Source: a virus
Lineage: Duplodnaviria; Heunggongvirae; Uroviricota; Caudoviricetes
DNA length: 64,000 nt
IMG/VR virus record: IMGVR_UViG_3300032315_000486
Reading direction: 5' to 3' (one strand)
Position numbers and translations under genes: made by a program. Below the pieces are notes generated by a model. The model ran no database searches, was not told the origin of the DNA, and saw only the letters and a program-made list of their open reading frames with translations. Of this stretch, positions 2,985 to 63,565 are shown in pieces; positions within the stretch are counted from its first letter, which is position 1; each line of letters opens with the position of its first letter.

Positions 2985-3233
2985 ATGCAAGTAAAAATAA
3001 CGTGCCACACGTCACAACTTGAATCTTACATAGAATACTATGAAGCTTCTGGTTTCTCTCTTTTAGGAAAAAGTATAGAGGGTGAGGACGCAATCTTAAC
3101 TTTTCAAGGCCAAAGTACTGCACACGCAGCTGAGGCATCATATTGGGATTCCAGTGCTCAAGCATTTATCGAGTTTCAGGATGGAACTACTAGTCCGCTG
3201 TACGTGAGGCGTTCACGCTGGATGGAGGACTAG
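2985..3233 (+). CDS. hypothetical protein
   Basis: 82-aa ORF, no motif recognised. Confidence 0.3.
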   Translation: MQVKITCHTSQLESYIEYYEASGFSLLGKSIEGEDAILTFQGQSTAHAAEASYWDSSAQAFIEFQDGTTSPLYVRRSRWMED

Positions 3234-3280
3234 ACCATCTTTAAATAAATTTTTTGTTGCATCTGGCTCTCGAATCACGT
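3231..3280 (+). promoter_or_regulatory. sigma70-like promoter TTGCAT-N17-TAATGT with CGAATC spacer motif
   Basis: ttgttgcatctggctctcgaatcacgtaatgtatatac; same CGAATC-in-spacer architecture as promoters of the GC-rich cassette array at 59-63.5 kb. Confidence 0.45.
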
Positions 3281-3321
3281 AATGTATATACATACACAAA
3301 AACTTATGGGGTTTTAAAACA

Positions 3322-3642
3322 GTGTCAGAAACTCAACAAAACTACACAACTGAACAAACAAAGCAACTACTATCTCTCTATGAAGAGCTCGGAACAGACG
3401 GCATTGACGATATTGCAGAGCTTATGAAAAAGCCTGTAAGATCAATTAGATCTAAACTAGTTAAAGAGGGCGTATATGTACCCTCTCAAAAACAAGATAA
3501 CAAGAAAAATGGCCCTAGTAAGAAAGAACTTCTTAACACGCTAGAAAGCCTGGTAGGTTTTGACACTACTGGATTTAGTGGCTCAACCAAACAAGTATTG
3601 GCTGATTTAATTGTATATCTAGACAAAAATCACACTAAGTAA
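3322..3642 (+). CDS. small conserved protein, paralog family A (AT-rich copy)
   Basis: 106 aa, GTG start; shares NYT.E..QML.MYAELG.DGI..IAE.LGKPVRS.RSKLV.EGVYV...KKELLN.LESLVGFD with ORFs 60647-60973(-) and 63661->64000(-). Confidence 0.55.
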   Translation: MSETQQNYTTEQTKQLLSLYEELGTDGIDDIAELMKKPVRSIRSKLVKEGVYVPSQKQDNKKNGPSKKELLNTLESLVGFDTTGFSGSTKQVLADLIVYLDKNHTK

Positions 3643-3720
3643 TTAGAGTGACAGGTTAGGCTCTTAGTAAGAAGAATATCATATTAGTCTGCAATGTCAG
3701 AAGACTGTGATGAGCCATTA

Positions 3721-3748
3721 AGAAGAGCGGCGGCGGGGCTGCTTCTTA
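3721..3748 (+). repeat. GC-rich dyad aagaagagcggcggcggggctgcttctt downstream of paralog gene
   Basis: perfect 9-bp arms around GGCGGCGGGG core; resembles the GGGGCGCC core of the cassette-boundary elements at 58-63.6 kb. Confidence 0.4.
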
Positions 3749-3926
3749 AACAAATTCCCTATCAGAAGACGATAGTCTGGCGTCGGGGAGCCTGTTGTGA
3801 GTGGTACAGGTTAACAAAAAAACTCTCTGAGGGCTTGTGAATTTAACCTCAGCACACAACCAAATTTACCGATATAGAGCCGATCGTATATAAGTCCTAG
3901 TGTGCATTAGGCATGGCTTTGTTTAA

Positions 3927-3968
3927 GGCGTGTGGTAGTTAAGTGTCACACGCCTTAAATTTTATCTT
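3927..3968 (+). terminator. rho-independent terminator
   Basis: ggcgtgtg-N12-cacacgcc hairpin followed by ttaaattttatctt. Confidence 0.55.
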
Positions 3969-4007
3969 GCGTCTAAGTTATTTTTATCGTATATTATATT
4001 TATTGAA

Positions 4008-4265
4008 ATGATGGAGATAAATATGTACACAGTTCGCAAACTATTCACTGACGTATATGAAGTAGCTAACTTCGGTGATCGTAAAGATGCAGATGCAGTA
4101 TACACGGTTCGCAAAGCTAAGTGCAGCTGTCCCGCTGCTTGGGGTAAGCGATCATGCAAGCACGTAGGTCTAGTAAATCGTTTTAAAACTCTACGAGAAG
4201 GTGCTTGGTGGTTTGAGATCGTTGACAACGAAGTCATCTCCCACCGGCTACAAGCTTTCGAATGA
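4008..4265 (+). CDS. SWIM-type zinc-finger protein
   Basis: CSCPAAWGKRSCKHV fits CxCxnCxH SWIM signature. Confidence 0.5.
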   Translation: MMEINMYTVRKLFTDVYEVANFGDRKDADAVYTVRKAKCSCPAAWGKRSCKHVGLVNRFKTLREGAWWFEIVDNEVISHRLQAFE

Positions 4266-4315
4266 AATTCGATATTGACTGTAGGTTAAAAATAACTTAT
4301 AGTTAATATAACAAA

Positions 4316-4392
<77 letters not shown>

Positions 4393-4708: not shown

Positions 4709-4785
4709 ACTCCGGTAGCTCAATTGGTCAGAGCTGAGTGCTCATAACGCTTAGGTTGGGGGTTCGAGTCCCTCTCGGAGTACCA
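4709..4785 (+). tRNA. tRNA-Met/Ile2 (anticodon CAT), copy 1
   Basis: acceptor actccgg/tcggagt, anticodon loop ctcataa, T-arm gggggttcgagtccctc, CCA. Confidence 0.75.
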
Positions 4786-5058: not shown

Positions 5059-5141
5059 GCCCCCTTGGTGAAATGGTAGCCGCGCGAGACTTAAAATTTC
5101 GTTCCTACGGAGTGCCGGTTCGAGTCCGGCAGGGGGCACCA
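5059..5141 (+). tRNA. tRNA-Leu (anticodon TAA), type II
   Basis: acceptor gccccct/agggggc, anticodon loop cttaaaa, long variable arm, T-arm ccggttcgagtccgg, CCA. Confidence 0.75.
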
Positions 5142-8634: not shown

Positions 8635-9171
8635 ATGGACACTCTAGTACTAAACGCTGATGGTCTACCAGTAAGTCTTCTGCCTGTCAGTGCAGTAAGC
8701 TGGAAAGAAGCCATTCTATATATGTATCACGACAAATGTGATGTGCTAGAGTGGTATGATAATTGGGTAGTTCACAGCGCCAACTGGGAAACTCATGTTC
8801 CAGCAGTAATTATGCTTAAAAGCTACCTACGTAGAAATACAGATGTGCGTTTCAGCAAGGCAAATGTATTTCTTAGAGATAGCTATCGCTGCATGTACTG
8901 TAGTGTGGGTGTAAACAATAATACAGCTACTATGGACCACGTTCTTCCTCTTAGTAAAGGCGGTAAGACTACGTGGGAGAATATCGCTACTGCATGTTCT
9001 CCATGTAATACACGAAAAGAAGATAAGCTGCACATGAAACCACAGTATCAACCATACAAGCCAGGATACTATGAGCTTGTACGTAAACGTAAACAACTAC
9101 CATTCCAACTTCGTCATGATAGCTGGGCTAGGTGGCTAGGATTGGAGGATGAAATTGGGAAAGAGAAGTGA
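8635..9171 (+). CDS. HNH endonuclease
   Basis: CMYCSVGV...DHVLPLSKGGKTTWENIATACSPCNTRK = C..C...DH..P...GG....N....C..CN..K. Confidence 0.75.
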   Translation: MDTLVLNADGLPVSLLPVSAVSWKEAILYMYHDKCDVLEWYDNWVVHSANWETHVPAVIMLKSYLRRNTDVRFSKANVFLRDSYRCMYCSVGVNNNTATMDHVLPLSKGGKTTWENIATACSPCNTRKEDKLHMKPQYQPYKPGYYELVRKRKQLPFQLRHDSWARWLGLEDEIGKEK

Positions 9172-9715
9172 TTATGAGCGTAAACCAAGGGATTTCTACC
9201 CAACCCCGTTGGCAGCAGTTAAACCACTGATCCCGCATCTTCCTGAAAGTTTTACTTTTTGTGAGCCGTGTGCGGGTGATGCTAGATTGATTTATCACAT
9301 TGAAACCCTACATGCAGATGCTAGTTGTATTACGGCATACGATATTGAGCCTCAAGCTGACGACGTTGAAGAGCTAGATGCGCTAGATTTAGATGAAACT
9401 CATGTTGAGCATTGTGATTTTATTATAACAAATCCACCATGGGAGCGCTCGAAAAAGAGCGGATACCTACTTCATGCCATGATTGAGCGGTTCAGTGATC
9501 TTAGACCTACCTGGTTACTTTTTGATGCTGACTGGATGCACACTGAGCAAAGTGCTGATCTTGTTAAGGATCGACTTGTTAAGATTGTTAGTATAGGTCG
9601 TGTGAAATGGATTGAAGATAGCGCTGGAACCGGTAAAGATAACTGCTGCTGGTACCTGTTCGACAAGCCAAATCAGAGTGGAACGGAGTTCCACGGGCGT
9701 TCAAAACAAAAATGA
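9149..9715 (+). CDS. putative N6-adenine (DNA or RNA) methyltransferase
   Basis: DFYPTP..., FCEPCAGDA (motif I-like), IITNPPWE (NPPW motif IV). Confidence 0.55.
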   Translation: MKLGKRSDYERKPRDFYPTPLAAVKPLIPHLPESFTFCEPCAGDARLIYHIETLHADASCITAYDIEPQADDVEELDALDLDETHVEHCDFIITNPPWERSKKSGYLLHAMIERFSDLRPTWLLFDADWMHTEQSADLVKDRLVKIVSIGRVKWIEDSAGTGKDNCCWYLFDKPNQSGTEFHGRSKQK

Positions 9716-10074: not shown

Positions 10075-10115
10075 TCTTGCTCTGCGCTTGAGAATCACTT
10101 ATAGTATAAGAATAG
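10075..10115 (+). promoter_or_regulatory. sigma70-like promoter with A/T UP-element (tttaaaatt-N-cttgctc-N17-tatagt)
   Basis: TTGCTC/17 nt/TATAGT; UP-like tttaaaatttcttc shared with promoters at 17130 and 21735. Confidence 0.5.
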
Positions 10116-14582: not shown

Positions 14583-14658
14583 GGTTCTATAGCACTACGG
14601 TAGTGCAGCCGTGCCCTAACACGGTCGGAAGCAGGTTCAATTCCTGTTAGGACCACCA
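14583..14658 (+). tRNA. tRNA with non-canonical anticodon arm (8-nt or 6-nt loop; candidate anticodon CCT or CTA)
   Basis: acceptor ggttcta/taggacc, D gcac-tacggta-gtgc, T-arm gcaggttcaattcctgt, CCA; anticodon region gccgtgccctaacacggt folds only as 5-bp stem + 8-nt loop or 6-bp stem + 6-nt loop. Confidence 0.55.
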
Positions 14659-25946: not shown

Positions 25947-27020
25947 ATGCGTGATGCACTAGTATTTATCGGTCGGTTCCAGCCGTTTCACAATGGACAC
26001 AAAGCAGTTATTGATGCTGCACTTGAGCAAGCTAAAGAGGTAGTTGTAGTAGTCGGCTCTAGCTTTGCTGCTCGAAATATACGAAATCCATTTACGTTCC
26101 AAGAACGCAAGGCTATGATTGAAGTCTGTTTCAACAAACCACAGCACTTTGCTTATGAGGGTGCTCAAGGTCGAGTGAAGACGTCTCGCGTAAAAGTTGT
26201 TCCAGTCTCTGACTTCCCGTATGACGACAATAAATGGGTCAATGCAATTCAACGTATTGTTGATGTGACTGTTCCTGATGCACAAGATGTTGGTCTGATT
26301 GGTCACTCAAAAGACAGCACTAGTTACTACCTGAACATCTTCCCTCGCTGGAAGAACCATATTGAAGTTGATGATGTTGGTGGTATTAATGCTACTGACA
26401 TTCGTAAGCTGATGTTTGAAGGTAACGACGCTGGTACAAGCTCGCACTTTATTTCTACAATGATGCCTAAAGAAGCTCACGGAAAGATGTGTGACGTTAT
26501 CAATCAGAATGCCAAGATCGGCGGTGCATGGGACACTATTTGCAAAGAATACCAAATGGTACGAAAATACAAAGAAGCGTGGAAGGCCGCTCCGTTCCCT
26601 CCTACTTTCATGACTGTTGACGCTGTTGTTATTCAAAGCGGTCATATTCTTCTTGTAAAGCGTGGCGACATGCCTGGCAAAGGTCAATGGGCACTGCCAG
26701 GTGGTTTCTTGAACCAAGACGAAACTATGCTTGACGGGGCTATTCGTGAACTGAAAGAAGAAACCAAGATCAAAGTTCCTGCTCCGGTTTTGAAAGGTTC
26801 TATCAAAGCTTCCAAGACTTTTGACGCTCCTAACCGTTCTACTCGTGGCCGTACTATCACTCAAGCATTCTTGATTGACCTTGGTGTTGGCGAGCTTCCA
26901 AAGGTTAAAGGTTCTGATGATGCTGAAAAAGCATTCTGGGTTCCTTTCAAGGATGTGAAGCAAGAGAAGATGTTTGAAGACCACTTCCACATCATCGACA
27001 ACTTTATCAACATTGGATAA
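25947..27020 (+). CDS. natV: bifunctional NMN adenylyltransferase / Nudix ADP-ribose pyrophosphatase (NatV-type)
   Basis: N-terminal FIGRFQPFHNGH (nucleotidyltransferase HxGH); C-terminal Nudix box GGFLNQDETMLDGAIRELKEETKI. Confidence 0.8.
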   Translation: MRDALVFIGRFQPFHNGHKAVIDAALEQAKEVVVVVGSSFAARNIRNPFTFQERKAMIEVCFNKPQHFAYEGAQGRVKTSRVKVVPVSDFPYDDNKWVNAIQRIVDVTVPDAQDVGLIGHSKDSTSYYLNIFPRWKNHIEVDDVGGINATDIRKLMFEGNDAGTSSHFISTMMPKEAHGKMCDVINQNAKIGGAWDTICKEYQMVRKYKEAWKAAPFPPTFMTVDAVVIQSGHILLVKRGDMPGKGQWALPGGFLNQDETMLDGAIRELKEETKIKVPAPVLKGSIKASKTFDAPNRSTRGRTITQAFLIDLGVGELPKVKGSDDAEKAFWVPFKDVKQEKMFEDHFHIIDNFINIG

Positions 27021-27023
27021 CAG

Positions 27024-27200
27024 ATGGTTAAAGTAATTTCAGTGGGTGCTTTACAGGTTACCTGTCACAAGTGTAAATCTGTATTAGAGTACACTCACAG
27101 TGATATAAAAGAGTACCATGACTATGACTATGGTGGAGGTCATGATATTTACCGTGGGTTTAACTGCCCAATTTGTAATACGCTACTAACGCCAAAATAA
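27024..27200 (+). CDS. zinc-ribbon small protein (58 aa)
   Basis: CHKC...CPIC pairs; below track threshold. Confidence 0.35.
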   Translation: MVKVISVGALQVTCHKCKSVLEYTHSDIKEYHDYDYGGGHDIYRGFNCPICNTLLTPK

Positions 27201-27205
27201 AAGTC

Positions 27206-27222
27206 CAGTTCAGAGAGAACTG
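27206..27222 (+). promoter_or_regulatory. leader dyad CAGTTCagagagGAACTG (copy 5)
   Basis: perfect 6-bp inverted repeat 25 nt upstream of nadV ATG. Confidence 0.4.
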
Positions 27223-27247
27223 GCATTAACTTTAGAGGAGTTCTAAA

Positions 27248-28678
27248 ATGAAAACAGTACTACATCTTATCTCAGCTATCCTTCGTACCGATAGCTACAA
27301 ATTTTCTCAGTGGGTTCAGTATCCAGCAGGTACTACTCACATTTCTTCGTACATTGAAAGCCGCGGTGGCGAAGATGAGAGTGTGTTCTTTGGTCTGCAA
27401 GCGTTTATGAAAGACTATATGACCACGCCTATCACAATGGCGGACGTAGATCGTGCAGAACGTATTGTTCTAGCACACGGTCTACCTTTCAACCGCGAAG
27501 GTTGGGAAATTATCGTAAACGAATATAACGGTATGTTGCCAGTGCTGGTAGAAGCAGTACCAGAAGGTACGGTTATGCCAACCCATAACGTACAGGTTCA
27601 GGTAGTTAATACAGACCCGCGCCTGTGGTGGTTGACTTCGTACTTGGAAACAGCTATGCTTCGTGGTGTGTGGTATCCTTCTACTGTGGCGACGAAGTCG
27701 CGCAAGATGAAGAAAATCATCAAGCGTGCTCTTGAAGAAACATCTGACGTTTCAGTAGAAGCTCAGATCAATTTCAAGCTCCATGACTTTGGTGCTCGTG
27801 GCGCATCGTCTAGTGAAACTGCGATGCTCGGCGGCATGGCTCACCTAGTAAACTTTATGGGTACTGATACTGCCGAAGCTCTTGTAGGTGTTATGGAATA
27901 CTACAACACTGATGAGGTTGTTGGGTTTAGCATCCCAGCTAGTGAACATAGCACTATCACTTCTTGGGGTCGTGCACATGAAACTGATGCTTATGACAAC
28001 ATGATCGACCAGTTCGCAGGTGAAGGCAAGCTGTATGCTTGCGTATCTGATAGCTTCGACATCTATCACGCAGCTGGCCATCTATGGGGTGAAGTTCTTC
28101 GTGAGAAGATAATCAATTCAGGCGGCACCTTGGTGGTACGTCCTGATAGTGGTGATCCCGAAACTGTACCTGTAGAGATTGTCAAAATCCTTGCTAGCAA
28201 GTTTGGAACTACTACAAACTCGAAAGGGTTTAAGGTTCTGCACCCAAGCGTTAGAGTTATTCAAGGCGATGGTATCAACGAACACTCGCTACCTAAGATT
28301 CTAGAAAATCTGAAAACGGCAGGGTTCTCGGCAGAAAACATCACATTCGGTATGGGCGGCGGGTTGCTACAAGCTTGGAACCGTGATACTCTCAAGTATG
28401 CAATGAAGGCATCAGCTATTCGTGTTAATGAGAGTGATTGGGTTGGATTCTCAAAAGACCCAGTAACTGATCACGGTAAGCGTTCTAAAGAAGGCCGTAT
28501 TGCTCTAGTCAAAGAAGCTGGATTTGGTATTGCTCCATACATCCGCACCGTTCCAGCAGACTATTTCTGGGAGCGTCCAAGCGCAGAAAACCTGTTGCAG
28601 CCCGTGTTCATGAACGGCGTTATACTCGTTGAAGATACGTTTGAAAACATTCGTGAACGTGCAAAGGAAGGTGTGTGA
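27248..28678 (+). CDS. nadV: nicotinamide phosphoribosyltransferase (NadV-type NAMPT)
   Basis: 476 aa; TDSYKFSQW, HDFGARG, GTD....EHST blocks characteristic of NAMPT/NadV. Confidence 0.85.
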   Translation: MKTVLHLISAILRTDSYKFSQWVQYPAGTTHISSYIESRGGEDESVFFGLQAFMKDYMTTPITMADVDRAERIVLAHGLPFNREGWEIIVNEYNGMLPVLVEAVPEGTVMPTHNVQVQVVNTDPRLWWLTSYLETAMLRGVWYPSTVATKSRKMKKIIKRALEETSDVSVEAQINFKLHDFGARGASSSETAMLGGMAHLVNFMGTDTAEALVGVMEYYNTDEVVGFSIPASEHSTITSWGRAHETDAYDNMIDQFAGEGKLYACVSDSFDIYHAAGHLWGEVLREKIINSGGTLVVRPDSGDPETVPVEIVKILASKFGTTTNSKGFKVLHPSVRVIQGDGINEHSLPKILENLKTAGFSAENITFGMGGGLLQAWNRDTLKYAMKASAIRVNESDWVGFSKDPVTDHGKRSKEGRIALVKEAGFGIAPYIRTVPADYFWERPSAENLLQPVFMNGVILVEDTFENIRERAKEGV

Positions 28679-37948: not shown

Positions 37949-38154
37949 GCAGATATGCAATTCGTCGTAATGGTGAGCTAGTGCGTCATGTAGTTTTTGA
38001 GGCTAGCAACGATAACTATGCAAACTCTAGTGTGGTGATGGTAGCTTACGATTCTATTAAGAGTGCCCAAGAACTACTTCAGATTTGGCCAGATGCACAG
38101 ATTTTTGATTTAAAAAATAATTTGCATGTTGTGTACGAATCGGGTATAGTATAA
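37945..38154 (+). CDS. hypothetical protein
   Basis: ORF overlapping previous stop. Confidence 0.4.
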   Translation: MSRYAIRRNGELVRHVVFEASNDNYANSSVVMVAYDSIKSAQELLQIWPDAQIFDLKNNLHVVYESGIV

Positions 38155-38310
38155 TGTATCGAGTAACGTTAATTAACACACAAACTAACCAACCGCATGA
38201 GGTTGGTGGTACTCCTGTTATAGTACCTACCGAAAATCCAGATTTTACCTCTGAGCAGCTTCTCAGAAATAGAGATACAAAACTATTCAGAGTTCATATA
38301 GAAAAAGAGT

Positions 38311-53952: not shown

Positions 53953-53970
53953 TGGGCCCTTTTTTATTTA
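53936..53970. terminator. bidirectional rho-independent terminator
   Basis: aaaaa-gggccc-gtaat-gggccc-ttttttattt between convergent gene sets. Confidence 0.8.
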
Positions 53971-54974
53971 GCTGGTATGAGTATGCGAGAGAACTGTTCA
54001 TAACACGATTTCCATGTCCAACGCGTAGAACTATCATAAGCATCCTGCCTGCTCAGTTTCATTGCTTCAACCACAGCTTCATGTAGATCATCACTTAAGT
54101 ACCCATTAACTCCTTGAGTTAATATGTCTATAGGCCCAGTAACAGGATATGCAGCTACAGGAGTTCCACAAGCCAGCGCCTCAATGTTTACAACTCCAAA
54201 TGTATCAGATCGAGAAGGAAATACGAACACTGATGCTCGTCTATACCAGTCACCAAGCTCGTGCCCTGTTCGCTTTCCAGCAAAAAGAACATCTGGATAC
54301 CGAGCCTTCAAAGCCTCCAGATATGGTCCATCACCTACTAGCACCTTTTGAGTGCCTGGAATGTCAAGACTGCAAAAGTCGTCCAGACCTTTTTCATGGC
54401 TCACACGGCTCACGCACAACACAATCTTAGTAGACCCAGCCTCTCCCGTGTATGGATAGAACGTGGCAGTATCAACTCCGCGTGTCCATGAGTGAACTGG
54501 CTGAGTGAATCCGTGACCGCGCAGCTCTCGAACCATTGATTCAGTTGTGGTTAAAACCGCAGTAGCATCACGATAAGCCCAACGCATCAGCCGCCAACCC
54601 CGCTCAACACTGATCCAAGGCCAACGAGCATTGACAAACTCAGGAAATTTGGTATGGCATGATGCTGAGAACGGGATGCGCAGTCTGCGACAAGTTCTAG
54701 CAAATGCAATTCCAAGTGGGCCTTCTAGAGTTGCAATGTGAATGTGATCCCAGCGTTGACGCTTGAGCAGTCTACGAATGTGCAGAGGATTTGGGATTCC
54801 TACCGTAACCTCAGGATACTGAGGAAGCGAGAACCGGACAGTACAGCGTCCAGGATGATAAACGTGTACCACATCTCCATGGTTTCTAGCTTCACGAACG
54901 AGGTTCGTTAGGGTTGTGACCACTCCATTAGTTTGCGGATGCCAAGCATCAGTTATCAGAAGTATTCGTGCCAT
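53964..54974 (-). CDS. glycosyltransferase family 4 (GT-B fold)
   Basis: MARILLITDAWHPQTNGV N-terminus; EX7E motif region FVFPSRSDTFGVVNIEALACGTPVAAYPV. Confidence 0.7.
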   Translation of the reverse strand: MARILLITDAWHPQTNGVVTTLTNLVREARNHGDVVHVYHPGRCTVRFSLPQYPEVTVGIPNPLHIRRLLKRQRWDHIHIATLEGPLGIAFARTCRRLRIPFSASCHTKFPEFVNARWPWISVERGWRLMRWAYRDATAVLTTTESMVRELRGHGFTQPVHSWTRGVDTATFYPYTGEAGSTKIVLCVSRVSHEKGLDDFCSLDIPGTQKVLVGDGPYLEALKARYPDVLFAGKRTGHELGDWYRRASVFVFPSRSDTFGVVNIEALACGTPVAAYPVTGPIDILTQGVNGYLSDDLHEAVVEAMKLSRQDAYDSSTRWTWKSCYEQFSRILIPAK

Positions 54975-55707
54975 CTAACCTAAACTCTATGATTTCAAAC
55001 CGACCGTCTGAGTGTTCTACAAGGGCAGTTGCGCTTTCAACCCAATCACCGCAATTCATGTATGCAACCCCATCAATCTGCTTGATCACAGCTGTGTGAA
55101 TGTGTCCGCAGATGATCCCGTCATAGCCTTCACGTTTGCAATATGCAGAAACGTGAGTTTCAAAGTGTGTGATGAATGATACAGCTTGTTTTGTAGTCTG
55201 TTTGAGCCAGTTGCTCAAACTCCAGTATTCTAGACCAAACCAACCTCTCACTCGGTTAAATTGAATGTTCGCGACGATGGCCGCGTTGTATGCCACATCA
55301 CCGATGTGCATCAGCCAACGTTTGTCAACCATCAGCGAGTCAAAGAAGTCTCCATGAATCACCAGCAGCCGCTGTCCGCTCACAGAGTGATAGTCACAAC
55401 GATCTACCAGACGGATGTTGCCAACTTCAATGTCGAATTGAGTGAACTTGCGAAACACCTCATCGTGGTTTCCGGTCGTGTATGTGACCTCAGTTCCTCT
55501 TTTCGCTGCGGTAAGGATACGACGTATCACATTCGCATGGCTTTGAGGAAACCACCACCGACGGCTAAGTTGCCAGCCGTCGACAATGTCTCCAACCAGA
55601 AACAGTCGATCGCATGTGTGCTGCTTTAGAAACGCACACAGCGCGTCTGCTTGACAACCGCGAGCTCCTAGGTGAATGTCCGATATGAAAATGCTGGTGT
55701 AATGCAT
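54949..55707 (-). CDS. LpxH-like calcineurin-type metallophosphoesterase
   Basis: FISDIHLG, LVGDIVDGW, TGNHDE; overall layout as UDP-2,3-diacylglucosamine hydrolase family. Confidence 0.65.
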   Translation of the reverse strand: MHYTSIFISDIHLGARGCQADALCAFLKQHTCDRLFLVGDIVDGWQLSRRWWFPQSHANVIRRILTAAKRGTEVTYTTGNHDEVFRKFTQFDIEVGNIRLVDRCDYHSVSGQRLLVIHGDFFDSLMVDKRWLMHIGDVAYNAAIVANIQFNRVRGWFGLEYWSLSNWLKQTTKQAVSFITHFETHVSAYCKREGYDGIICGHIHTAVIKQIDGVAYMNCGDWVESATALVEHSDGRFEIIEFRLDGTNTSDN

Positions 55708-56833: not shown

Positions 56834-57247
56834 GCTGGGGGCAGGGCATTAAAGAATATTTTTAAAATGGTCGTCAACCATTGTTTTTGACAACTTTGCT
56901 ACTAGACTTTTTATTCATTTAGGTGTACGATTGAGAGGTAGACAAAAGAGCAGGGAGAACGAGATAGGCAATGGAATTGCCGTGCGTACTAAGATCACGC
57001 AGTGAAACGGCGGGGCCAGCAGCAGGCTACGAGCGTTAGCGAGCGCTGCTGACAGCATCACGAAGTGAATTAGTGGTGATCGAAGCGGATATTTGAGTCG
57101 TACTTACGTTTAAATCACTGTGTTAGATTGTTTAAACGTATTTTAACCTGTTTACGTCGTATTCTAGTTTATAGTATTATTATTCAGGCACATTCAGGCC
57201 TGCCAAGAATTGGCACAGGCGGCAAGTGATACTATCCCAGCCTGCGT

Positions 57248-57262
57248 TGCAACGTAGTTGCA
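57248..57262. promoter_or_regulatory. operator-like palindrome TGCAAC-gta-GTTGCA (O2)
   Basis: perfect 6-bp inverted repeat. Confidence 0.45.
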
Positions 57263-57306
57263 TTGGGTTGTACTGGCCTGCCATGAAATGGCTCGGGGTT
57301 GATTCC

Positions 57307-57332
57307 GTTGCATTGGTTGCAACGAAGTTGCA
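57307..57332. promoter_or_regulatory. overlapping palindromes CGTTGCA-ttggt-TGCAACG and TGCAAC-gaa-GTTGCA (O3)
   Basis: two dyads sharing the TGCAAC arm. Confidence 0.45.
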
Positions 57333-57368
57333 CTGGTGGTCCATGAAATGGCTCGGGGCCCTTACATC

Positions 57369-57385
57369 GTGCAAAGTATTTGCAC
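57369..57385. promoter_or_regulatory. operator-like palindrome GTGCAAA-gta-TTTGCAC (O4)
   Basis: perfect 7-bp inverted repeat. Confidence 0.45.
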
Positions 57386-57694
57386 TGGTGGGCCATGAAA
57401 TGGCTCGGGGTTTTTAGGTTTTCCTACTAGGATTCCGTCTATTTTTTAGACTCTCTTCGGATCCAGGACTCTGTCTAGTGATTATTTTTCAAATAAGAGA
57501 GATTTTAGTCTAGTAACGTATACTATCGGTAGCCGACCGCGCCAGAAATTCATAAAAACAGGTTGGTACCAGTGGTCTTGCCAAATAATCATTTAAAAAG
57601 TAGGATTCCTCAAAAATATTTCAAAAAACAACCGTTAATTGCTTGACCCCTGCCCGTCAGACCCGTGAAACTACGTTTCATACCGAATATGGCG

Positions 57695-57709
57695 TTGCAC
57701 GAAGTGCAA
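57695..57709. promoter_or_regulatory. operator-like palindrome TTGCAC-gaa-GTGCAA (O5)
   Basis: perfect 6-bp inverted repeat adjacent to terminator. Confidence 0.45.
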
Positions 57710-57745
57710 AAGGCCCCTAGGAGTGATCCTAGGGGCCTTTTTAGT
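57707..57745. terminator. bidirectional rho-independent terminator
   Basis: aaaa-ggcccctagga-gtga-tcctaggggcc-ttttt, 11-bp perfect stem. Confidence 0.75.
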
Positions 57746-57826
57746 ATGATTCGGTAGCCTGTGGCGTACCCAGGACCTTGTTTCAATCATTCACTAGTCA
57801 AAATCCTACCACACGCATCAAAATTC

Positions 57827-58158
57827 TACTTGCCGTTTGCCTACTGGTGCTTCGCACCCACCCACATCACGAAGTGATGCACCGTTGCAGGACTTTGAAA
57901 CGTAGTTTCGAATCGCACGAACCCCGCCACGCGCTTTGATTTTGTACTTGCCATTTGCCTACTGGTGCACGCACACACTTGCAATTAAACAGCAGCTGGA
58001 CCGAATCCCGCGTTTAAAATTTACTTTGTACTTGCCAAATGCCTACTGGCGCAGGGCCGCGCACACAGACTGACCGTCAACACGGACCTAATCGAAATTG
58101 CACTCGACGGCCGCATGGTCGAAAGTCTACTTTCTACTTGGCGCAAGCTGCGCTTGCC
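57827..58158 (+). repeat. iteron-like direct repeats TACTTGCCnTTTGCCTACTGGyGC (3 good copies + 1 degenerate)
   Basis: copies at 57827-57850, 57945-57968, 58029-58052, degenerate 58134-58158; spacing 118/84/105 bp. Confidence 0.55.
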
Positions 58159-58212
58159 AGCTATGCCTGCGGTTGCGGCGAAATCGCGTGGTGGTTGTGG
58201 TGGAAAAGATGA

Positions 58213-58270
58213 ATGAAATCAATTGCTTGGGAGGCCGGGCGCCCCGACTGTTAACCTGTTGAAATCCAAT
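58213..58270. repeat. cassette-boundary dyad element R1 (degenerate)
   Basis: aatcaattgcttgg...ggccgggcgccccg...ctgttaacctgttgaaatcc. Confidence 0.4.
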
Positions 58271-58509
58271 GGTTATTTTTCATTTGCATCAGTGCTGAGA
58301 ATCATGTATAACGTATGAGTAGGCAGTAAAGAGAAGCCTAGCCGATGCCGCGATAGACTGCACCGCTTACACTGTTCATGACAGGCGGCTTGCACGGATG
58401 ATACGGGTTGGTCAGATGAAGCGGGGTAGAGATGCGCATCCCCTGCCAATCGAATAGGCTTCTCCTTAGTGCCTACCAATAAACTCTTTGATTTCAGTAA
58501 CTTGGAATC

Positions 58510-58555
58510 AGAGGCGCCCCGCCCTGTATGTCCTTGAACATACAGGGTTTTTTAG
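58510..58555 (+). terminator. rho-independent terminator oriented for plus-strand transcription (R0)
   Basis: ggcgccccg then ccctgtatgt-ccttga-acatacaggg hairpin + tttttt. Confidence 0.7.
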
Positions 58556-58773
58556 TGCGCCTCGAATTGTGGGACTAAAGCCCATTCAACATTAGACAGC
58601 TCAGTCAACTCGCCATCTTCAATGCCGAGCATTTTCCAATTGCTGTAAGCGTCCCAGTCCTTTTTATCAATGGCCCCGCCTTCCCAGAGTTTACGGAATT
58701 CAGCATTGATTTGCGGAAGTGTGCCTTGTATAAAACAAGGCACTTCATCCTCCGTATAGATCAGCACATACAT
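58552..58773 (-). CDS. hypothetical acidic protein (73 aa)
   Basis: last gene of a tricistronic minus unit. Confidence 0.45.
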   Translation of the reverse strand: MYVLIYTEDEVPCFIQGTLPQINAEFRKLWEGGAIDKKDWDAYSNWKMLGIEDGELTELSNVEWALVPQFEAH

Positions 58774-58784
58774 TTTATTTCCTT

Positions 58785-59015
58785 TCAGAAAACAGATTGA
58801 GGATGGCCGAACAACACAACCAGAAGGTCATAGCCGTCGAGCAGATCAGCCAGAGCGGCAACGCGGTCAACCTCGTCCCATTCAGCGTATTCGACTTCGC
58901 CAGCGAGTGACACCCAAGCGGCACTGGTCATGAGATTGGGATCAACATCGGTTTCAACTTCGGTGAGCATATAATGGTCACCGCCATCACGCCAGACTAC
59001 AGTGTAGTTTTTCAT
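58785..59015 (-). CDS. hypothetical acidic protein (76 aa)
   Basis: ORF. Confidence 0.45.
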   Translation of the reverse strand: MKNYTVVWRDGGDHYMLTEVETDVDPNLMTSAAWVSLAGEVEYAEWDEVDRVAALADLLDGYDLLVVLFGHPQSVF

Positions 59016-59026
59016 GTCTTTTCCTT

Positions 59027-59149
59027 TCAGAGGATTGTGAGTGATTCGACAGTGGATTCATCTTCTGCCAAATGGTAACCAAAGTCAAGCAGAATTTGCA
59101 TAGTCAAATGATTCAGGTAGTCGATGTATTCTTCGTAGGTCAGGTCCAT
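59027..59149 (-). CDS. hypothetical small protein (40 aa)
   Basis: ATG 8 nt after ggaaaaacaaa RBS-like and correctly spaced from promoter Pm1. Confidence 0.3.
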   Translation of the reverse strand: MDLTYEEYIDYLNHLTMQILLDFGYHLAEDESTVESLTIL

Positions 59150-59172
59150 TTTGTTTTTCCTTTCGATGATTA

Positions 59173-59201
59173 TGTATAGGCTGATTCGTTACGCGTTGCA
59201 A
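59173..59201 (-). promoter_or_regulatory. cassette promoter Pm1 (TTGCAA-N17-TATACA, CGAATC in spacer)
   Basis: minus strand ttgcaacgcgtaacgaatcagcctataca. Confidence 0.55.
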
Positions 59202-59221
59202 GCCCTAAATTACTGCGTAAT

Positions 59222-59270
59222 ATCAATGAGTTACGACCCGGGGCGCCGGGGTGGTTAACCCCTTGTTATT
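59222..59270. repeat. cassette-boundary dyad element R2
   Basis: caatgagttacgacccggggcgccggggtggttaaccccttgttatt. Confidence 0.6.
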
Positions 59271-59466
59271 ATTCAGTTTCTTCCTCTGGGATGTCTTCAA
59301 CCTCGATTAGTTTCGCATCTAAATTATGCGAATCAAAGGTTTGCTCTTCCGAATCTTCCCAATCACCATTGCGGACCATAGCCCTAGCCTCTTCTTCTGA
59401 TTCGGCTTCAAGCCAGACTGTTTGCCGCCCGCTGAACGGCATTGAAAAGGTGTAAAGTTTGCTCAT
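59269..59466 (-). CDS. hypothetical acidic protein (65 aa)
   Basis: start MSKLYTF after gggagatcaaagc RBS; track ORF opens at 59505. Confidence 0.45.
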   Translation of the reverse strand: MSKLYTFSMPFSGRQTVWLEAESEEEARAMVRNGDWEDSEEQTFDSHNLDAKLIEVEDIPEEETE

Positions 59467-59546
59467 GCTTTGATCTCCCTGATCAGTTGTTTCAGGCGCG
59501 CCCAACGGCTACGCTTGGGCTTGCTCAGTCGAACTTTAATCCTCAT
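59463..59546 (-). CDS. 27-aa basic peptide (MRIKVRLSKPKRSRWARLKQLIREIKA), translationally coupled on both sides
   Basis: TAAAATG overlap with upstream stop and ATGA overlap with downstream start. Confidence 0.25.
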   Translation of the reverse strand: MRIKVRLSKPKRSRWARLKQLIREIKA

Positions 59547-59547
59547 T

Positions 59548-59775
59548 TTAGCAGCTCCCGATTTCAAGAATGTCAGAGTTAAATTGCGGTTGCAGAGTAT
59601 TTACCACATCTTCCCAAGTGGTAAATGATCCTCCAGCAGGATCACCATCACACCAAACACTATCATCAGATTCATCATCGCAGACAACGCTGAAATTAGA
59701 ATCCTCTTCCAAAGTGCCATAGCACTCCACGTCCCGACCTTGGTAGTGGACGATGTATACATGATTTGCTTCCAT
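59548..59775 (-). CDS. hypothetical Cys/Asp-rich protein (75 aa)
   Basis: aaaaggagaaacaaagATG RBS. Confidence 0.5.
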   Translation of the reverse strand: MEANHVYIVHYQGRDVECYGTLEEDSNFSVVCDDESDDSVWCDGDPAGGSFTTWEDVVNTLQPQFNSDILEIGSC

Positions 59776-59799
59776 CTTTGTTTCTCCTTTTGATGATTA

Positions 59800-59829
59800 A
59801 CTATAGCCCGAATCATGAGGACAGTGCAA
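59800..59829 (-). promoter_or_regulatory. cassette promoter Pm2 (TTGCAC-N18-TATAGT, GATTCG in spacer)
   Basis: minus strand ttgcactgtcctcatgattcgggctatagt. Confidence 0.5.
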
Positions 59830-59848
59830 GCACAAAGTTTCTGTGTGT

Positions 59849-59900
59849 TCTCAACGGGTTATGCTGCGGGGCGCCGGGGTGGTTAACCCCTTGTTATTAT
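59849..59900. repeat. cassette-boundary dyad element R3
   Basis: caacgggttatgctgcggggcgccggggtggttaaccccttgttatt. Confidence 0.55.
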
Positions 59901-60319
59901 AATTCTTCAACAGGTAGATATTCCCATTTAAAAGACCTAGAACCAGAAATTTCTAGCAGAGGAGATTCTGTCTTTTTATTGTATTTCAGAAAAGACTTGA
60001 CCTCCTTGAGCACGTGTTTGGCTTGTAGGAAAGTAATTGCAAAAACCTCAGTTTGCCCGCTATTCATTTTAAACCCTTGGCCGGTCTTAGGGTCTTGAAA
60101 GTTACCTGATACAACCACCTCGTATGCTTTGCCGCCTTTCTTTTCTGCAAGCATATGTGCAAGCACTTCAGCATCGGAATCTTCAATCTCAATGCTAGCC
60201 ATGCGAATGCGATCAGACTTTAGAAACCCGATTTGTTTTGCTCGGGACGTAACACTTCCGCGAGTTACACCGATTTTGGTAATTCCAAAACCTTCGTAAG
60301 TGACAGCATAGAGTTTCAT
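59897..60319 (-). CDS. GIY-YIG/T5orf172-like domain protein candidate (140 aa)
   Basis: start MKLYAVTYEGFGITKIGVT (..LY....G..KIGvT); promoter-consistent ATG at 60319 rather than 60373. Confidence 0.4.
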   Translation of the reverse strand: MKLYAVTYEGFGITKIGVTRGSVTSRAKQIGFLKSDRIRMASIEIEDSDAEVLAHMLAEKKGGKAYEVVVSGNFQDPKTGQGFKMNSGQTEVFAITFLQAKHVLKEVKSFLKYNKKTESPLLEISGSRSFKWEYLPVEEL

Positions 60320-60344
60320 GGTTGCTTCCTTTTCTGTTACCTTG

Positions 60345-60373
60345 TTTATAGCTGCTAAACTATAAGTCGTCAA
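60345..60373 (-). promoter_or_regulatory. cassette promoter Pm3 (TTGACG-N17-TATAAA)
   Basis: minus strand ttgacgacttatagtttagcagctataaa. Confidence 0.5.
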
Positions 60374-60393
60374 TATCGTTTAAAGACGATAGA

Positions 60394-60446
60394 AATCAAT
60401 GAGTTAGCTGCCCGGCCGCCCCACCCGCTAACCTGTTGAAATCATT
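60394..60446. repeat. cassette-boundary dyad element R4
   Basis: aatcaatgagttagctgcccggccgccccacccgctaacctgttgaaatcatt. Confidence 0.6.
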
Positions 60447-60471
60447 ACACATTTTCCGTGTCTTTCGTGCA

Positions 60472-60504
60472 ACAAAAAAGCCCCCGCATTGCTGCGAGGG
60501 CTTT
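60472..60504 (-). terminator. rho-independent terminator (minus orientation)
   Basis: minus strand gccctcgcagcaatgcgggggc + ttttttgtt. Confidence 0.55.
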
Positions 60505-60646
60505 AAGCGTGCATACTGTCTAGCACGATCAACCGGCGGGTGACGCAACCGACACGGATTTGTTTTGACCATTTAACGTCGGGTCTGGAGTCTTATCTGA
60601 ACCGAGACGATAGTTGGGTGTGACATTTCTGCCACACCCGTTAGGC

Positions 60647-60973
60647 TCAGGCGGCTTTCACCGCCTGCGCCAGAGCGATCACAGAGGCGATTGCCTCTTT
60701 AGTCGCACCCAGCAAACCGTCAACGGGAAAATCGACCAGCGACTCCAGTTCGTTGAGCAGTTCCTTTTTGGTCGGGCCTTCGACCTTGGCAGCCTTCGGA
60801 GCCTTCGGCTCGGCCACATAGGCACCCTCGCGGACCAGCTTGGACCGGACGGACCGGACAGGCTTGCCCAAGGTTTCGGCAATCTTTTCGATGCCGTCAT
60901 TGCCCAACTCGGCATACATCTGCAACATTTGCTCGACCATCGACTCGGTGTAGTTCACTTTTGCTTCAGCCAT
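60647..60973 (-). CDS. small conserved protein, paralog family A (GC-rich copy 1)
   Basis: MAEAKVNYTESMVEQMLQMYAELGNDGIEKIAETLGKPVRSVRSKLVREGAYV...KKELLNELESLVDF; start chosen from ggagaaaatcATG. Confidence 0.55.
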   Translation of the reverse strand: MAEAKVNYTESMVEQMLQMYAELGNDGIEKIAETLGKPVRSVRSKLVREGAYVAEPKAPKAAKVEGPTKKELLNELESLVDFPVDGLLGATKEAIASVIALAQAVKAA

Positions 60974-61004
60974 GATTTTCTCCTCAGATGGGCTGTTTCG
61001 CTTT

Positions 61005-61033
61005 CCGTTCAATATATATAGACGATTCGCGGG
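61005..61033 (-). promoter_or_regulatory. cassette promoter Pm4 (TTGCTG-N17-TATATA, CGAATC in spacer)
   Basis: minus strand ttgctgcctgcccgcgaatcgtctatata. Confidence 0.5.
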
Positions 61034-61103
61034 CAGGCAGCAAGAGTAATTTTTCGCTTGACACGCACAAAATGGGGTCTTGAAGTGACTAAATTATGCA
61101 ATG

Positions 61104-61162
61104 AAATCAATGGGTTAGCCGCCGGGGCGCCGCCCCAGCTATCTCATTGAAATAGCTGGGTT
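61104..61162. repeat. cassette-boundary dyad element R5
   Basis: aatcaatgggttagccgccggggcgccgccccagctatctcattgaaatagctgggtttttt. Confidence 0.6.
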
Positions 61163-61167
61163 TTTTG

Positions 61168-61371
61168 TTACAGTTCGTCAACGAGAGTTTCGTCGTCACC
61201 CTCCCAAGCGGCGTTCATCAGACACGAGTCTGCGCCTTCTTCTGGAGTCATGCCGCACTCATAGGAGTCACGGCTAAGCCAGTCGGGCAGCATCATACTG
61301 TCAAGCCCGCCAGTCCGCTTGACGAGAATGCGATCAACCTGCGTCATCCATTCTTCATAGGTTATAGTCAT
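61168..61371 (-). CDS. hypothetical acidic protein (67 aa)
   Basis: ggagg RBS; ATGA overlap with upstream gene. Confidence 0.45.
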   Translation of the reverse strand: MTITYEEWMTQVDRILVKRTGGLDSMMLPDWLSRDSYECGMTPEEGADSCLMNAAWEGDDETLVDEL

Positions 61372-61559
61372 TCAAAGTGTCCTCCAAATCGAGTGTGGCC
61401 GATAGCTACAGGAATTTCGTGCGTGGGATATCCATCAGCTTTGAGTTGTGAAGCCAGGGTTTCATCAGAACGAGTCAAGCCTTTCGGCCATGTTTTGGGA
61501 AATCCATACCGCCAGCCGCTTGGCGGGTCATACCAGTCAGGGACGAAAACTTTAGTCAT
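61368..61559 (-). CDS. hypothetical protein (63 aa)
   Basis: start MTKVFVPDWYD after caggaggttgct RBS; track ORF opens at 61634. Confidence 0.45.
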   Translation of the reverse strand: MTKVFVPDWYDPPSGWRYGFPKTWPKGLTRSDETLASQLKADGYPTHEIPVAIGHTRFGGHFE

Positions 61560-61580
61560 AGCAACCTCCTGTGATGATCG

Positions 61581-61609
61581 TATATAACGTGATTCGTTAG
61601 TGCGGACAA
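61581..61609 (-). promoter_or_regulatory. cassette promoter Pm5 (TTGTCC-N17-TATATA, CGAATC in spacer)
   Basis: minus strand ttgtccgcactaacgaatcacgttatata. Confidence 0.5.
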
Positions 61610-61628
61610 TAGGCAAATTTGTGTGCGT

Positions 61629-61680
61629 TATCAATGAGTTAGAATCGGCAGCGCCCCGCCCGCTAAGTGCTTGATTTAGT
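61629..61680. repeat. cassette-boundary dyad element R6
   Basis: atcaatgagttagaatcggcagcgccccgcccgctaagtgcttgatttag. Confidence 0.55.
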
Positions 61681-61710
61681 TGAGAAAAATGAGGGGCCGA
61701 AGCCCCTCAC

Positions 61711-62433: not shown

Positions 62434-62470
62434 GGCAGGTTTCCTTCGTTGTCTGCGCTTCCTTATGATC

Positions 62471-62499
62471 TTTATACGGTGATTCGCAGGGGGATGCAA
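62471..62499 (-). promoter_or_regulatory. cassette promoter Pm6 (TTGCAT-N17-TATAAA, CGAATC in spacer)
   Basis: minus strand ttgcatccccctgcgaatcaccgtataaa. Confidence 0.5.
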
Positions 62500-62517
62500 C
62501 AACTAAAAAACGCAGCA

Positions 62518-63039: not shown

Positions 63040-63040
63040 T

Positions 63041-63548: not shown

Positions 63549-63565
63549 CAGAAAAGAATCGTTGT

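Follow-up and report, generated by a model that had tools for sequence, protein, structure and literature searches.

To our knowledge, A2 of bacteriophage T5 is one of just two proteins necessary for the second step of the two-step injection of T5 DNA. A2 is a dimeric double-stranded DNA binder that associates with A1 and is needed for second-step transfer (bioRxiv 10.1101/866236). Two further systems are relevant here, the GcrA/CcrM pair and the PeSL cassettes of T4-type phages. [quoted passage not shown] PeSL cassettes are mobile regulatory units in which a repeated composite of stem-loop and early promoter flanks the gene (PMC2839356, PMC4122927).

We considered three small ORFs in a 64,000-nucleotide stretch of DNA from an uncultured phage, referred to throughout as the window. 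A preliminary description had taken them for a family of small regulators, one member of which had been transposed long ago together with its promoter and terminator. Our best overall explanation, held at a probability of about 0.6, is that they are T5 A2-like paralogs, two in a T5-like pre-early block and one long established elsewhere, with sigma70-type promoters carrying a common box and with translational specialisation between the copies. The T5 A2 family and its multi-copy arrangement in related phages are already known; judged by sequence, the shared promoter is real and its motif matches the methylation-dependent site of the alphaproteobacterial activator GcrA.

Three A2-like paralogs and their predicted fold

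The ORFs (copies 1 to 3, Table 1) each encode about 105-120 aa. Copies 1 and 2 are 50% identical, copies 1 and 3 are 49% identical and copies 2 and 3 are 78% identical, so the 40-70% first given for the family suits the pairs with copy 1 and is slightly too low for the third. Similarity is full-length, with 43 invariant columns in the three-copy alignment, which rules out low complexity or chance as its source; the grouping of the three as a paralogous family at these positions is upheld. The reading frame of copy 3 starts NYTEAM... at 63999, and a longer, TTG-started ORF extends copy 2 to 61012.

Profile and pairwise comparisons show that the three ORFs are, at the level of sequence, paralogs of the T5 pre-early protein A2 (T5.006; PF26822, phrog_1725). 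The top PHROG for all three is phrog_1725 (E = 1.3e-4, 1.4e-6 and 1.1e-5 for copies 1, 2 and 3), which T5 A2 itself matches at E = 4.3e-52. Copy 2 aligns with T5 A2 by BLASTP at E = 3e-7 (36% identity over 76 aa), hhalign gives E = 1.6e-5, and PF26822 (Phage_T5_A2) is precomputed on many close homologs of the window copies. The likeness is clear only in the N-terminal domain and linker. A Pfam model set without PF26822 gave just sub-threshold Myb and sigma70-r4 matches to the window proteins, and 50,697 phage records searched by tblastn with copy 2 gave no match. Among sequenced phages there were no near relatives, the only matches being to tRNAs, and no relatives of solved structure were found by sequence. 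The preliminary description had the helix-turn-helix (HTH) type right and missed that the family was already known.

An AF2 model of copy 1 (mean pLDDT 83.8) has helices at residues 10-23, 25-35, 39-49, 67-78 and 90-102. The predicted fold runs from an N-terminal Myb/SANT-type three-helix HTH through a Lys/Pro-rich, flexible basic linker to two C-terminal helices, with PVRSVRSKLVREG as the predicted recognition helix. The segment GKPVRSVRSKL, earlier singled out as helix-turn-like, is helix 3 of this domain, and the suggestion of a small nucleic-acid-binding protein gains support from it. The environmental A2-like family is large and diverse (1,067 clusters at 50% identity). A 69-member alignment has 26 invariant positions, among them R40, S41, R43, S44, K45, L46, V47, E49 and G50 in or beside the recognition helix. 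By analogy with T5, the paralogs would be double-stranded DNA binders whose C-terminal helices probably mediate dimerisation or contact with a partner. They would function as infection begins, at the transition between the DNA that enters first and the remaining genome.

Table 1. Positions of the A2-like genes, their promoters and associated elements in the window
Feature	Position	Strand	Details
A2-like copy 1	3322-3642	+	106 aa, GTG start
A2-like copy 2	60647-60973	-	108 aa, ATG start
A2-like copy 3	63661->64000	-	5' end beyond window edge
Copy 1 promoter	3240-3285	+	A/T-rich stretch 3240-3256, -35 TTGCAT 3257-3262, 17-nt spacer
Copy 1 promoter, spacer box and -10	box CGAATCA 3271-3277; -10 TAATGT 3280-3285	+	sequence pattern
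Copy 2 promoter	61015-61043	-	TTGCTG-N17-TATATA, box CGAATCG at 61029-61023
Other box-type promoters of block	span 59173-63548	-	63548, 62499, 61609, 59829 (GATTC), 59201
AT-arm box-type promoter	10077-10105	+	TTGCTC...AGAATCA...TATAGT; precedes 53-aa ORF and tRNA-Met
AT-arm box-type promoter	38122-38150	+	TTGCAT...CGAATCG...TATAGT
Hairpin downstream of copy 1 (UUAAGAAGAGCGGC...GCUGCUUCUUAA)	3718-3749	+	-13.5 kcal/mol; weak terminator candidate
GC-rich palindromic intergenic element (TCAATGGGTTAGC-GC core-...TTGAAAT)	61093-61154		just upstream of copy 2 promoter

The GC-rich block and its promoter class

The block at about 58.5-64 kb, which contains copies 2 and 3, is made up of small genes that are individually supplied with a promoter and a palindromic GC element; it may be a T5-like pre-early module. 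The palindromic element occurs in about nine copies in 58.2-63.6 kb, including 60382-60443 and 63555-63616, and is also found upstream of A2-like genes in six related loci (L001, L013, L022, L036, L039, L040). As simple strong RNA hairpins these elements did not hold up, one of the two tested being no better than shuffles. The block is bordered by a repeat region at 56.9-58.5 kb that is not translated. Two or three A2-like paralogs lie beside T5 dmp homologs (E 1e-13 to 1e-14) in almost every related locus; the window itself contains no dmp homolog within its 64 kb. A search of related phages for further copies had been suggested, and such copies were indeed found; what had been overlooked is that related metagenomic phages as a rule carry two to three paralogs beside T5-type dmp genes. 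A2-like genes often lie less than 5 kb from the ends of metagenomic contigs, which, like the repeat region beside the block, hints indirectly at a place in a long terminal repeat.

GC3 within the block is mosaic, ranging from 0.36 to 0.72: copies 2 and 3 are at 0.70-0.72, the 148-aa and 240-aa genes at 0.60-0.64 and the others at 0.36-0.50. Together with the GC-rich A2-like genes in several related loci of varying GC, and with a block gene order that varies between relatives, this raises the possibility that copies 2 and 3 and some neighbours are newcomers from a GC-richer related phage, that copy 1 is native, and that the contrast between them is the footprint of a recent transfer. However, copies 2 and 3 have positional orthologs in L024 and L022, respectively, where the neighbouring genes are unchanged and the DNA is 86-90% identical (90% for copy 3 in L022), and are therefore not recent. 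They are also sisters in the tree, and their 78% identity implies duplication within the lineage; moreover, all block promoters have a lineage-specific box (see below), so the block is integrated into the regulation of the phage. We consider such a transfer quite unlikely. Assembly chimerism is ruled out, as L024 is collinear over window positions 62357-51219 and L005 is 100% identical. The copy 2 protein is also identical on L005. An identical copy 2 protein in different contexts was rejected as proof of mobility, the contigs concerned (L006, L008, L010) simply being collinear variants at 93% in which the ORF was called differently.

The promoters of the block share the pattern TTGnnn-N8-9-[C/A]GAATC[A/G]-N2-3-TATAnA. 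This class accounts for six of the seven candidate promoters at 58.5-64 kb versus 3/51 in the AT-rich arm. Six matches were observed against 1.16 expected, a count that none of 100 shuffles reached, and all strict instances of the box in the window (7/7) read CGAATC[A/G]. The preliminary description had placed TTGCAT-N17 with CGAATC ahead of copy 1, as in the GC block, and the enriched pattern is present there at 3257-3285. All three A2-like genes would be driven by sigma70-type promoters, that of copy 3 lying beyond the window. The copy 1 promoter layout is kept in L009 (CGAATCACG) and L004 (AGAATCACG), the 10077 promoter in L009, and the L024 ortholog of the copy 2 promoter has GATTC at the same place. 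An A2-specific operator, TTGCAY-NN-TGCT after the -35, was also considered and is enriched relative to all matches of the pattern (Fisher p = 9e-5), but it occurs in many other plausible promoters and is therefore a general promoter feature rather than evidence of autoregulation.

Distribution of the box among relatives is uneven. Three relatives (L022, L024, L040) have it in 6-10 promoters each. The copy 1 orthologs in L012 and L023 have the same promoter layout with the box absent, and it is likewise absent from the pre-early promoters of four more distant loci (L001, L013, L014, L036). These absences imply that the box was added in situ and was not inherited with a cassette; going by the promoter sequences compared, it is a lineage-specific addition to pre-existing promoters.

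Origin and codon use of copy 1

Copy 1 is placed in the early region, with the NAD ligase on one side and, just downstream, the tRNA cluster on the other. The order of ligase, three small ORFs and A2-like gene is kept in L004, L009 and one ENA contig, and the ORF preceding copy 1 is kept in L012 and L023 as well. In the tree, copy 1 belongs to a monophyletic deep clade. Relatives with as little as about 70% identity keep it in syntenic position behind the ligase, and we regard copy 1 as an old resident, a long-established paralog.

The proposal that copy 1 is an older transposition of the block's promoter-gene-terminator cassette, since ameliorated to AT-rich composition, has several observations on its side. 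Copy 1 has a rare promoter class, being one of only 3/51 AT-arm candidates; a hairpin follows it; its composition equals the local background (ligase GC3 0.30); and it is the deeper-branching paralog. The block looks modular, since relatives have the same gene families reordered and promoter-plus-palindrome units repeat, and in this respect it is reminiscent of PeSL cassettes in T4-type phages (PMC2839356). However, no DNA homology joins the flanks or coding sequence of copy 1 to the GC block beyond the 10-12 nt promoter core, and copy 1 has no flanking palindromic GC element. The box is missing from the L012/L023 copy 1 promoters and the distant pre-early promoters, and two AT-arm genes unrelated to copy 1, at 10077 and 38122, are driven by the same promoter class, which speaks against transposition as the origin of the shared promoter. 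In other lineages all copies are at intermediate GC, so the direction of compositional change is not fixed. With a box that is lineage-specific and absent from distant orthologous promoters, and flanks without block homology, cassette transposition is not supported: the evidence for a jumped cassette appears weak and we rate the event as decidedly improbable. What survives of the proposal is the greater age of copy 1 and its shared promoter class; the cassette origin does not.

The dyad reported at 3721-3748 corresponds to the hairpin in Table 1, and is not the block's palindromic element GGGGCGCCCC with its GCTAAC...TTGATTT flanks. The hairpin is no more stable than shuffles (z = 0.22); in L004 it is kept with one compensatory change and is followed there by a U-run. 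A stronger terminator-like hairpin lies at 3921-3960. Rfam found nothing meaningful in 3640-4320.

The AT-rich codon usage noted for copy 1 is borne out by GC and GC3 of 0.37 and 0.29, against 0.58 and 0.72 for copy 2 and 0.59 and 0.70 for copy 3. Exact phage-tRNA-cognate codons make up 58% of copy 1 and 23-29% of copies 2 and 3 (23% in copy 2). Copy 1 (0.58) is above the AT-arm gene average (0.45), and this looks like selection, not drift; the earlier idea of drift towards the host phage composition is thus right about composition, which equals that of the surroundings, but does not account for the tRNA match. We suggest, from codon content, that the paralogs have split by temporal specialisation rather than by passive drift, and the composition contrast may reflect translational specialisation. 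Copies 2 and 3, which avoid phage-tRNA codons, would fit a time of expression at which the tRNA genes are not yet available; copy 1, built of phage-tRNA codons, would fit its site just upstream of the tRNA cluster. The averages of the other block genes (0.39) and of the AT-arm genes (0.45) differ by a small gap, so the translational-timing reading applies mainly to the A2-like genes and two neighbours. The paralog split is a compact natural example of a possible partition between host-dependent and phage-tRNA-dependent translation in a tRNA-rich phage.

Comparison with GcrA, PeSL cassettes and T5

On the opposite strand, CGAATC[A/G] corresponds to the Caulobacter GcrA consensus, YGAKTCG. As in Caulobacter GcrA promoters, the box lies in the spacer near -20, with top-strand GAATC in the orientation of the PcsM box. 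It ends 3-4 nt before the -10. With a start site placed 7 nt downstream of the -10, its centre is estimated to fall at about -18/-19, whereas a GcrA-activated promoter would have it at -20 +/- 1 or at -30 +/- 2; on the same assumption of a standard start site, it is 1-2 bp nearer the -10 than in PcsM. No CcrM-type GANTC methylase was recognised within the window, and the one ORF with an NPPW motif, 9149-9712, was rejected as a CcrM-like methylase, having no Pfam family. Across the window, global GANTC bias as a methylation signal is absent (202 observed vs 214-229 expected). Host inference from genome bins was set aside, as their taxonomy was inconsistent and the bins probably held mis-binned phage contigs.

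It is conceivable, though we lean clearly against it, that a distantly T5-like lineage rewired its whole pre-early promoter set and three early promoters, including that of copy 1, with a GcrA-type methylated-GANTC spacer box. If so, first transcription after DNA entry would depend on an epigenetic reader. This could be the GcrA of the host in complex with sigma70 or, in a more radical version, the A2-like proteins themselves with their Myb/GcrA-DBD fold; in the radical version, the T5-type role of A2 in completing DNA entry would be transcriptional. A functional GcrA-type box would mean that in a virulent phage the promoters used first depend on a methylation reader of the host, and would point to an alphaproteobacterial host for this uncultured phage group.

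That the A2-like proteins read the CGAATC[A/G] box as viral GcrA analogues with a tail that would bind polymerase, activating or shutting off their own promoter class as an autoregulatory set, strikes us as very improbable. In the model their layout is that of GcrA (PF07750), a predicted three-helix N-terminal fold as DNA-binding domain (DBD), then a basic flexible linker and a C-terminal domain, and invariant family residues partly match GcrA DNA-contact residues (GcrA/A2-like: R33/R40, G38/S44, K39/K45, R42/R-K48, G44/G50; PMC5887438). Several phage proteins annotated GcrA are among the weak fold matches, and T5 pre-early proteins have been reported to co-purify with RNA polymerase (older work, summarised in PMC7472727). 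However, the GcrA DBD gives a weak hhalign score (E = 0.018, probability 2.6%), none of the 69 family members match Pfam GcrA at E<=1, tblastn with the GcrA DBD over the window and related DNA found no homolog, and in the fold comparison GcrA scores no better than many Myb/SANT domains. Conservation does not extend to N34 and I37, the methyl-pocket residues of GcrA. The CCCH zinc-finger sigma70-interacting domain of GcrA, formed by loops around the zinc site (PMC5887438), is absent from the A2-like proteins, which end in two helices; copy 1 lacks cysteine altogether. Lastly, the recognition helix is invariant even in lineages with box-free promoters, which makes the box an unlikely candidate for the conserved DNA target.

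Like PeSL cassettes, the block consists of short genes preceded by a palindrome and an early-type promoter, and its gene order varies between relatives. It differs in sequence and phage group, and the likeness is one of sequence layout. The stem-loop and early promoter composite is seen at the 58-64 kb block genes and not at copy 1, which has the promoter core without a palindromic element or flank homology.

T5 and the window phage are distant, the window ligase being about 32% identical to Demerecviridae ligases. Identity to T5 A2 is only about 36% and limited to about 75 residues. T5 has one A2 gene per terminal repeat, whereas the window phage has three diverged paralogs, one of them (copy 1) outside the pre-early module in the early region. 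The A1 partner present in T5 was not detected in the window nor in 518 kb of related DNA, and there was no T5.007 homolog in the window or related loci. T5 has its terminal repeat and two-step transfer; the window phage is likened to it by its genes. Set against these differences, the window copies, as modelled, share with T5 A2 the small size, an N-terminal HTH and linker with the SVRSKL recognition-helix motif, a helical C-terminal part with an L-x-x-LES-like motif, strong sigma70-type promoters, and a module that in relatives of the window phage also has T5-type dmp (dNMPase) genes. With its invariant positions, confident fold model and natural paralog sets, the A2-like family offers concrete material for finding what A2 binds.

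Members of the T5 A2 family

The three small proteins are real members of the known T5 A2 family. A profile search returned >3,000 homologs, many carrying a precomputed PF26822 match, a family listed as Phage_T5_A2 in a related contig's gene table; two genes at that locus are annotated PF26880 (Phage_T5_dNMPase). Copy 2 matches T5 A2 itself by BLASTP (E=3e-7, 36% over 76 residues, with the SVRSKL motif in common) and by hhalign (E=1.6e-5). T5 A2 hits phrog_1725 at 4e-52, and the same PHROG is the best one for copies 1, 2 and 3 (E 1e-4 to 1e-6). Utilizing an exhaustive profile search (E<=1e-3), we obtained 1,067 family clusters at 50% identity, every one small and single-domain; no solved structure was found by sequence among these relatives.

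A2-like genes and other genes of note in the window
Feature	Position	Strand	Remarks
A2-like copy 1	3322-3642	+	GTG start, 106 aa
A2-like copy 2	60647-60973	-	108 aa
A2-like copy 3	63661 to beyond right window edge	-	frame opens NYTEAM at 63999
tRNA-like gene	14583-14658	+	called by ARAGORN; abnormal 2-nt anticodon ('ct')
NAD salvage genes	25947-28678	+	NUDIX / cytidylyltransferase-like fusion and NAPRTase/NAMPT, alongside the NAD-dependent ligase
Glycosyltransferase (GT4) and metallophosphoesterase genes	53964-55707	-	missing from the otherwise collinear contig L024, hence an indel between close relatives

All three paralogous ORFs exist as the preliminary description had them. Copy 1 is 50% identical to copy 2 and 49% to copy 3, copies 2 and 3 share 78%, and the similarity is full-length (43 invariant columns), not confined to low-complexity segments. 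Two to three A2-like genes within 4-5 kb are the usual state (31 viral-contig loci, among others), and paralogy is a trait of the lineage. Rooting a neighbour-joining tree on T5 A2 places copy 1 and its relatives in a deep clade of their own. Copies 2 and 3 pair as sister genes, and for each there is a separate ortholog in L024 or in a second metagenomic contig, L022. The gene order at copy 1, ligase followed by three small ORFs and the A2-like gene, is shared by relatives whose proteins are 98% and 80% identical, and the ORF preceding copy 1 is likewise kept in relatives at about 70%. Given this conserved position, copy 1 is a long-settled, stable gene of the early region. What is new here is the arrangement: the three paralogs have diverged, their codon regimes contrast, and one of them lies outside the pre-early module. 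All are assigned to a lineage-specific promoter class with a GcrA-like box.

T5 A2 is a dimeric dsDNA binder that partners A1 and is needed for second-step DNA transfer (Davison, bioRxiv 10.1101/866236). Homologs of T5 dmp (E 1e-13 to 1e-14) are interspersed with A2-like genes in related loci. No A1 homolog was found in the window or those loci. The window has no dmp; its 148-aa nucleoside-deoxyribosyltransferase-like gene belongs to a distinct family. No close sequenced phage exists at the DNA level, and the best relatives of the NAD-dependent ligase are T5-like phages (Demerecviridae, about 32% identity).

Composition and codon use

GC content is 0.36-0.49 up to ~53 kb and 0.44-0.54 past that point. 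An assembly artefact at this junction is ruled out by an independent metagenomic contig, L024, collinear with the window from 62357 to 51219, and by another, L005, identical (100%) over 2.7 kb. Copy 1 does have the AT-rich usage ascribed to it (GC 0.37, GC3 0.29), as do its neighbours (0.30 for GC3 of the ligase); GC3 is 0.72 in copy 2 and 0.70 in copy 3.

The window encodes 27 tRNA genes between 4.3 and 21.7 kb, the first about 700 bp downstream of copy 1. Exact cognates of phage-encoded tRNAs make up 58% of copy 1 codons, and NNA codons with a phage tRNA 40%; the corresponding shares in copies 2 and 3 are 23-29% and 11-13%. Exact-cognate codons average 45% in genes of the AT-rich arm and 39% in other genes of the GC-rich, pre-early-like block (~58.5-64 kb). 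With 58% against 23-29%, the paralogs thus mark the two extremes of reliance on phage tRNAs. Copies 2 and 3 would be translated while the tRNA cluster is not yet available, and copy 1 together with the cluster, a split in timing that would fit the codon figures. Because GC3 within the block is mosaic (0.36-0.72), horizontal acquisition of some of its genes is also possible.

In relatives, a tRNA-Leu(UAA) and tRNA-Met pair resembling window tRNAs 5059-5141 and 4709-4785 lies within the pre-early-like module, directly upstream of an A2-like gene (L022:8538-8691, L001:6059-6222, L036:5869-6030). In this phage the equivalent position would fall just to the right of the window. A2-like genes are very frequently found 0.1-5 kb from the ends of metagenomic contigs (L015, L016, L022, L024, L027, L030, L037, L039 and others), and L022 and L024, from one sample, abut at window ~62340-62357. 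Assemblies break within this module, which is what terminal repeats or repeated cassettes nearby would lead one to expect.

The promoter box and its surroundings

Copy 1 is preceded by TTGCAT (3257), a 17-nt spacer containing CGAATC (3271), and TAATGT (3280). This pattern occurs more often in the window than expected (6 matches, 1.2 expected; 6 reached in 0/100 shuffles). Aligning all CGAATC occurrences gave a promoter class with an A/T-rich upstream, TTGyww, 8-9 nt, [C/A]GAATC[A/G], 2-3 nt and TATAnA. Among candidates from a generic promoter pattern, GANTC lies 3-4 nt before the -10 in 6/7 on the minus strand at 58.5-64 kb, but in only 3/51 on the plus strand at 1-53 kb, namely 3257 (copy 1), 10077 and 38122. 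The assignment of copy 1 to the promoter type of the block is therefore correct and non-trivial.

The same description took this likeness as the mark of an older transposition of the same type of cassette, which our comparison does not support. The flanks and coding sequence of copy 1 share only a 10-12 nt promoter core with block DNA, and copy 1 has no palindromic GC element of the block's kind. The box, CGAATC[A/G], occurs in most block promoters of close relatives (L022, 10/16; L024, 6/7; L040, 8/13) and is absent from those of L001, L013, L014 and L036. It is also absent from the orthologous copy 1 promoters of L012 and L023, where the layout is otherwise kept. The box is lineage-specific, and we reject it as a relic of a transposed cassette. 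Being lineage-limited and without flank homology, it is a regulatory feature that many promoters within one lineage gained in situ.

At the third box promoter of the AT-rich arm, 38122-38160(+), the -10 region overlaps the ATG of a roughly 57-aa ORF, so either the transcript is leaderless or the true start lies elsewhere. At 58284-58314(+), a box-type promoter (TTGCAT...AGAATCA...TATAAC) points rightward, antisense to the block, into a 33-nt inverted repeat and may drive a small structured transcript.

A long palindromic element rich in GC is found in ~9 copies at 58205-63616; its core is of the GGGGCGCCCC type and its flanks are TCAATGGGTTAGC / GCTAAC..TTGATTT. Each is intergenic and directly upstream of a box promoter, and the flanks are kept in distant relatives without the box; the element may act as a terminator, bind a protein or serve as a hotspot of recombination. 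Adjoining the block, 56900-58550 (about 1.6 kb) has no credible ORFs. It is packed with direct repeats (57258-57410 and 57802-58052), carries an inverted repeat (58314-58346 / 58449-58481) and is enriched in GANTC (11 observed, 4-8 expected). In this it is reminiscent of T5, whose terminal repeat has an untranslated repeat / injection-stop region.

Downstream of copy 1, the dyad described earlier is present (3718-3749, -13.5 kcal/mol) and conserved in one relative with a compensatory change, but it folds no better than shuffles. Between it and a terminator-like hairpin (3921-3960), non-coding 3775-3880(+) is almost invariant in two related loci, L009 and L004. Two hairpins are predicted in it, and in one of them a G-C pair is replaced by A-U through a compensatory change. 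The stretch has no Rfam match and may be a small RNA.

Resemblance to GcrA sites

Of greatest interest is the promoter box, for what it implies about the host, methylation and the function of A2. Read on the opposite strand, CGAATC[A/G] is [T/C]GATTCG, and TGATTCG / YGAKTCK is the preferred site of Caulobacter GcrA (Haakonsen et al., PMC4647560). GcrA, a cofactor of sigma70, activates promoters whose GANTC is methylated by CcrM, at sites "narrowly centered around -20" (PMC4647560). Going by this sequence-level likeness and the literature, the box resembles a GcrA-type site. The window has no global GANTC bias and no detectable CcrM-like methylase, and no GcrA homolog was found in it or in related loci.

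It is improbable that the A2-like proteins themselves read the box. They share with GcrA a layout of DNA-binding domain, linker and tail, and some GcrA DNA-contact positions fall on invariant family residues (PMC5887438). However, hhalign of the family against the GcrA DNA-binding domain is weak (E=0.018), no member matches Pfam GcrA, the zinc-finger sigma-binding domain is missing, and the recognition helix is invariant even in lineages without the box. On this evidence we favour a host factor as the candidate reader. [quoted passage not shown] The box described here stops 3-4 nt short of the -10 and, assuming a standard start site, would be centred at about -18/-19, in agreement with the position of GcrA sites within 1-2 bp.
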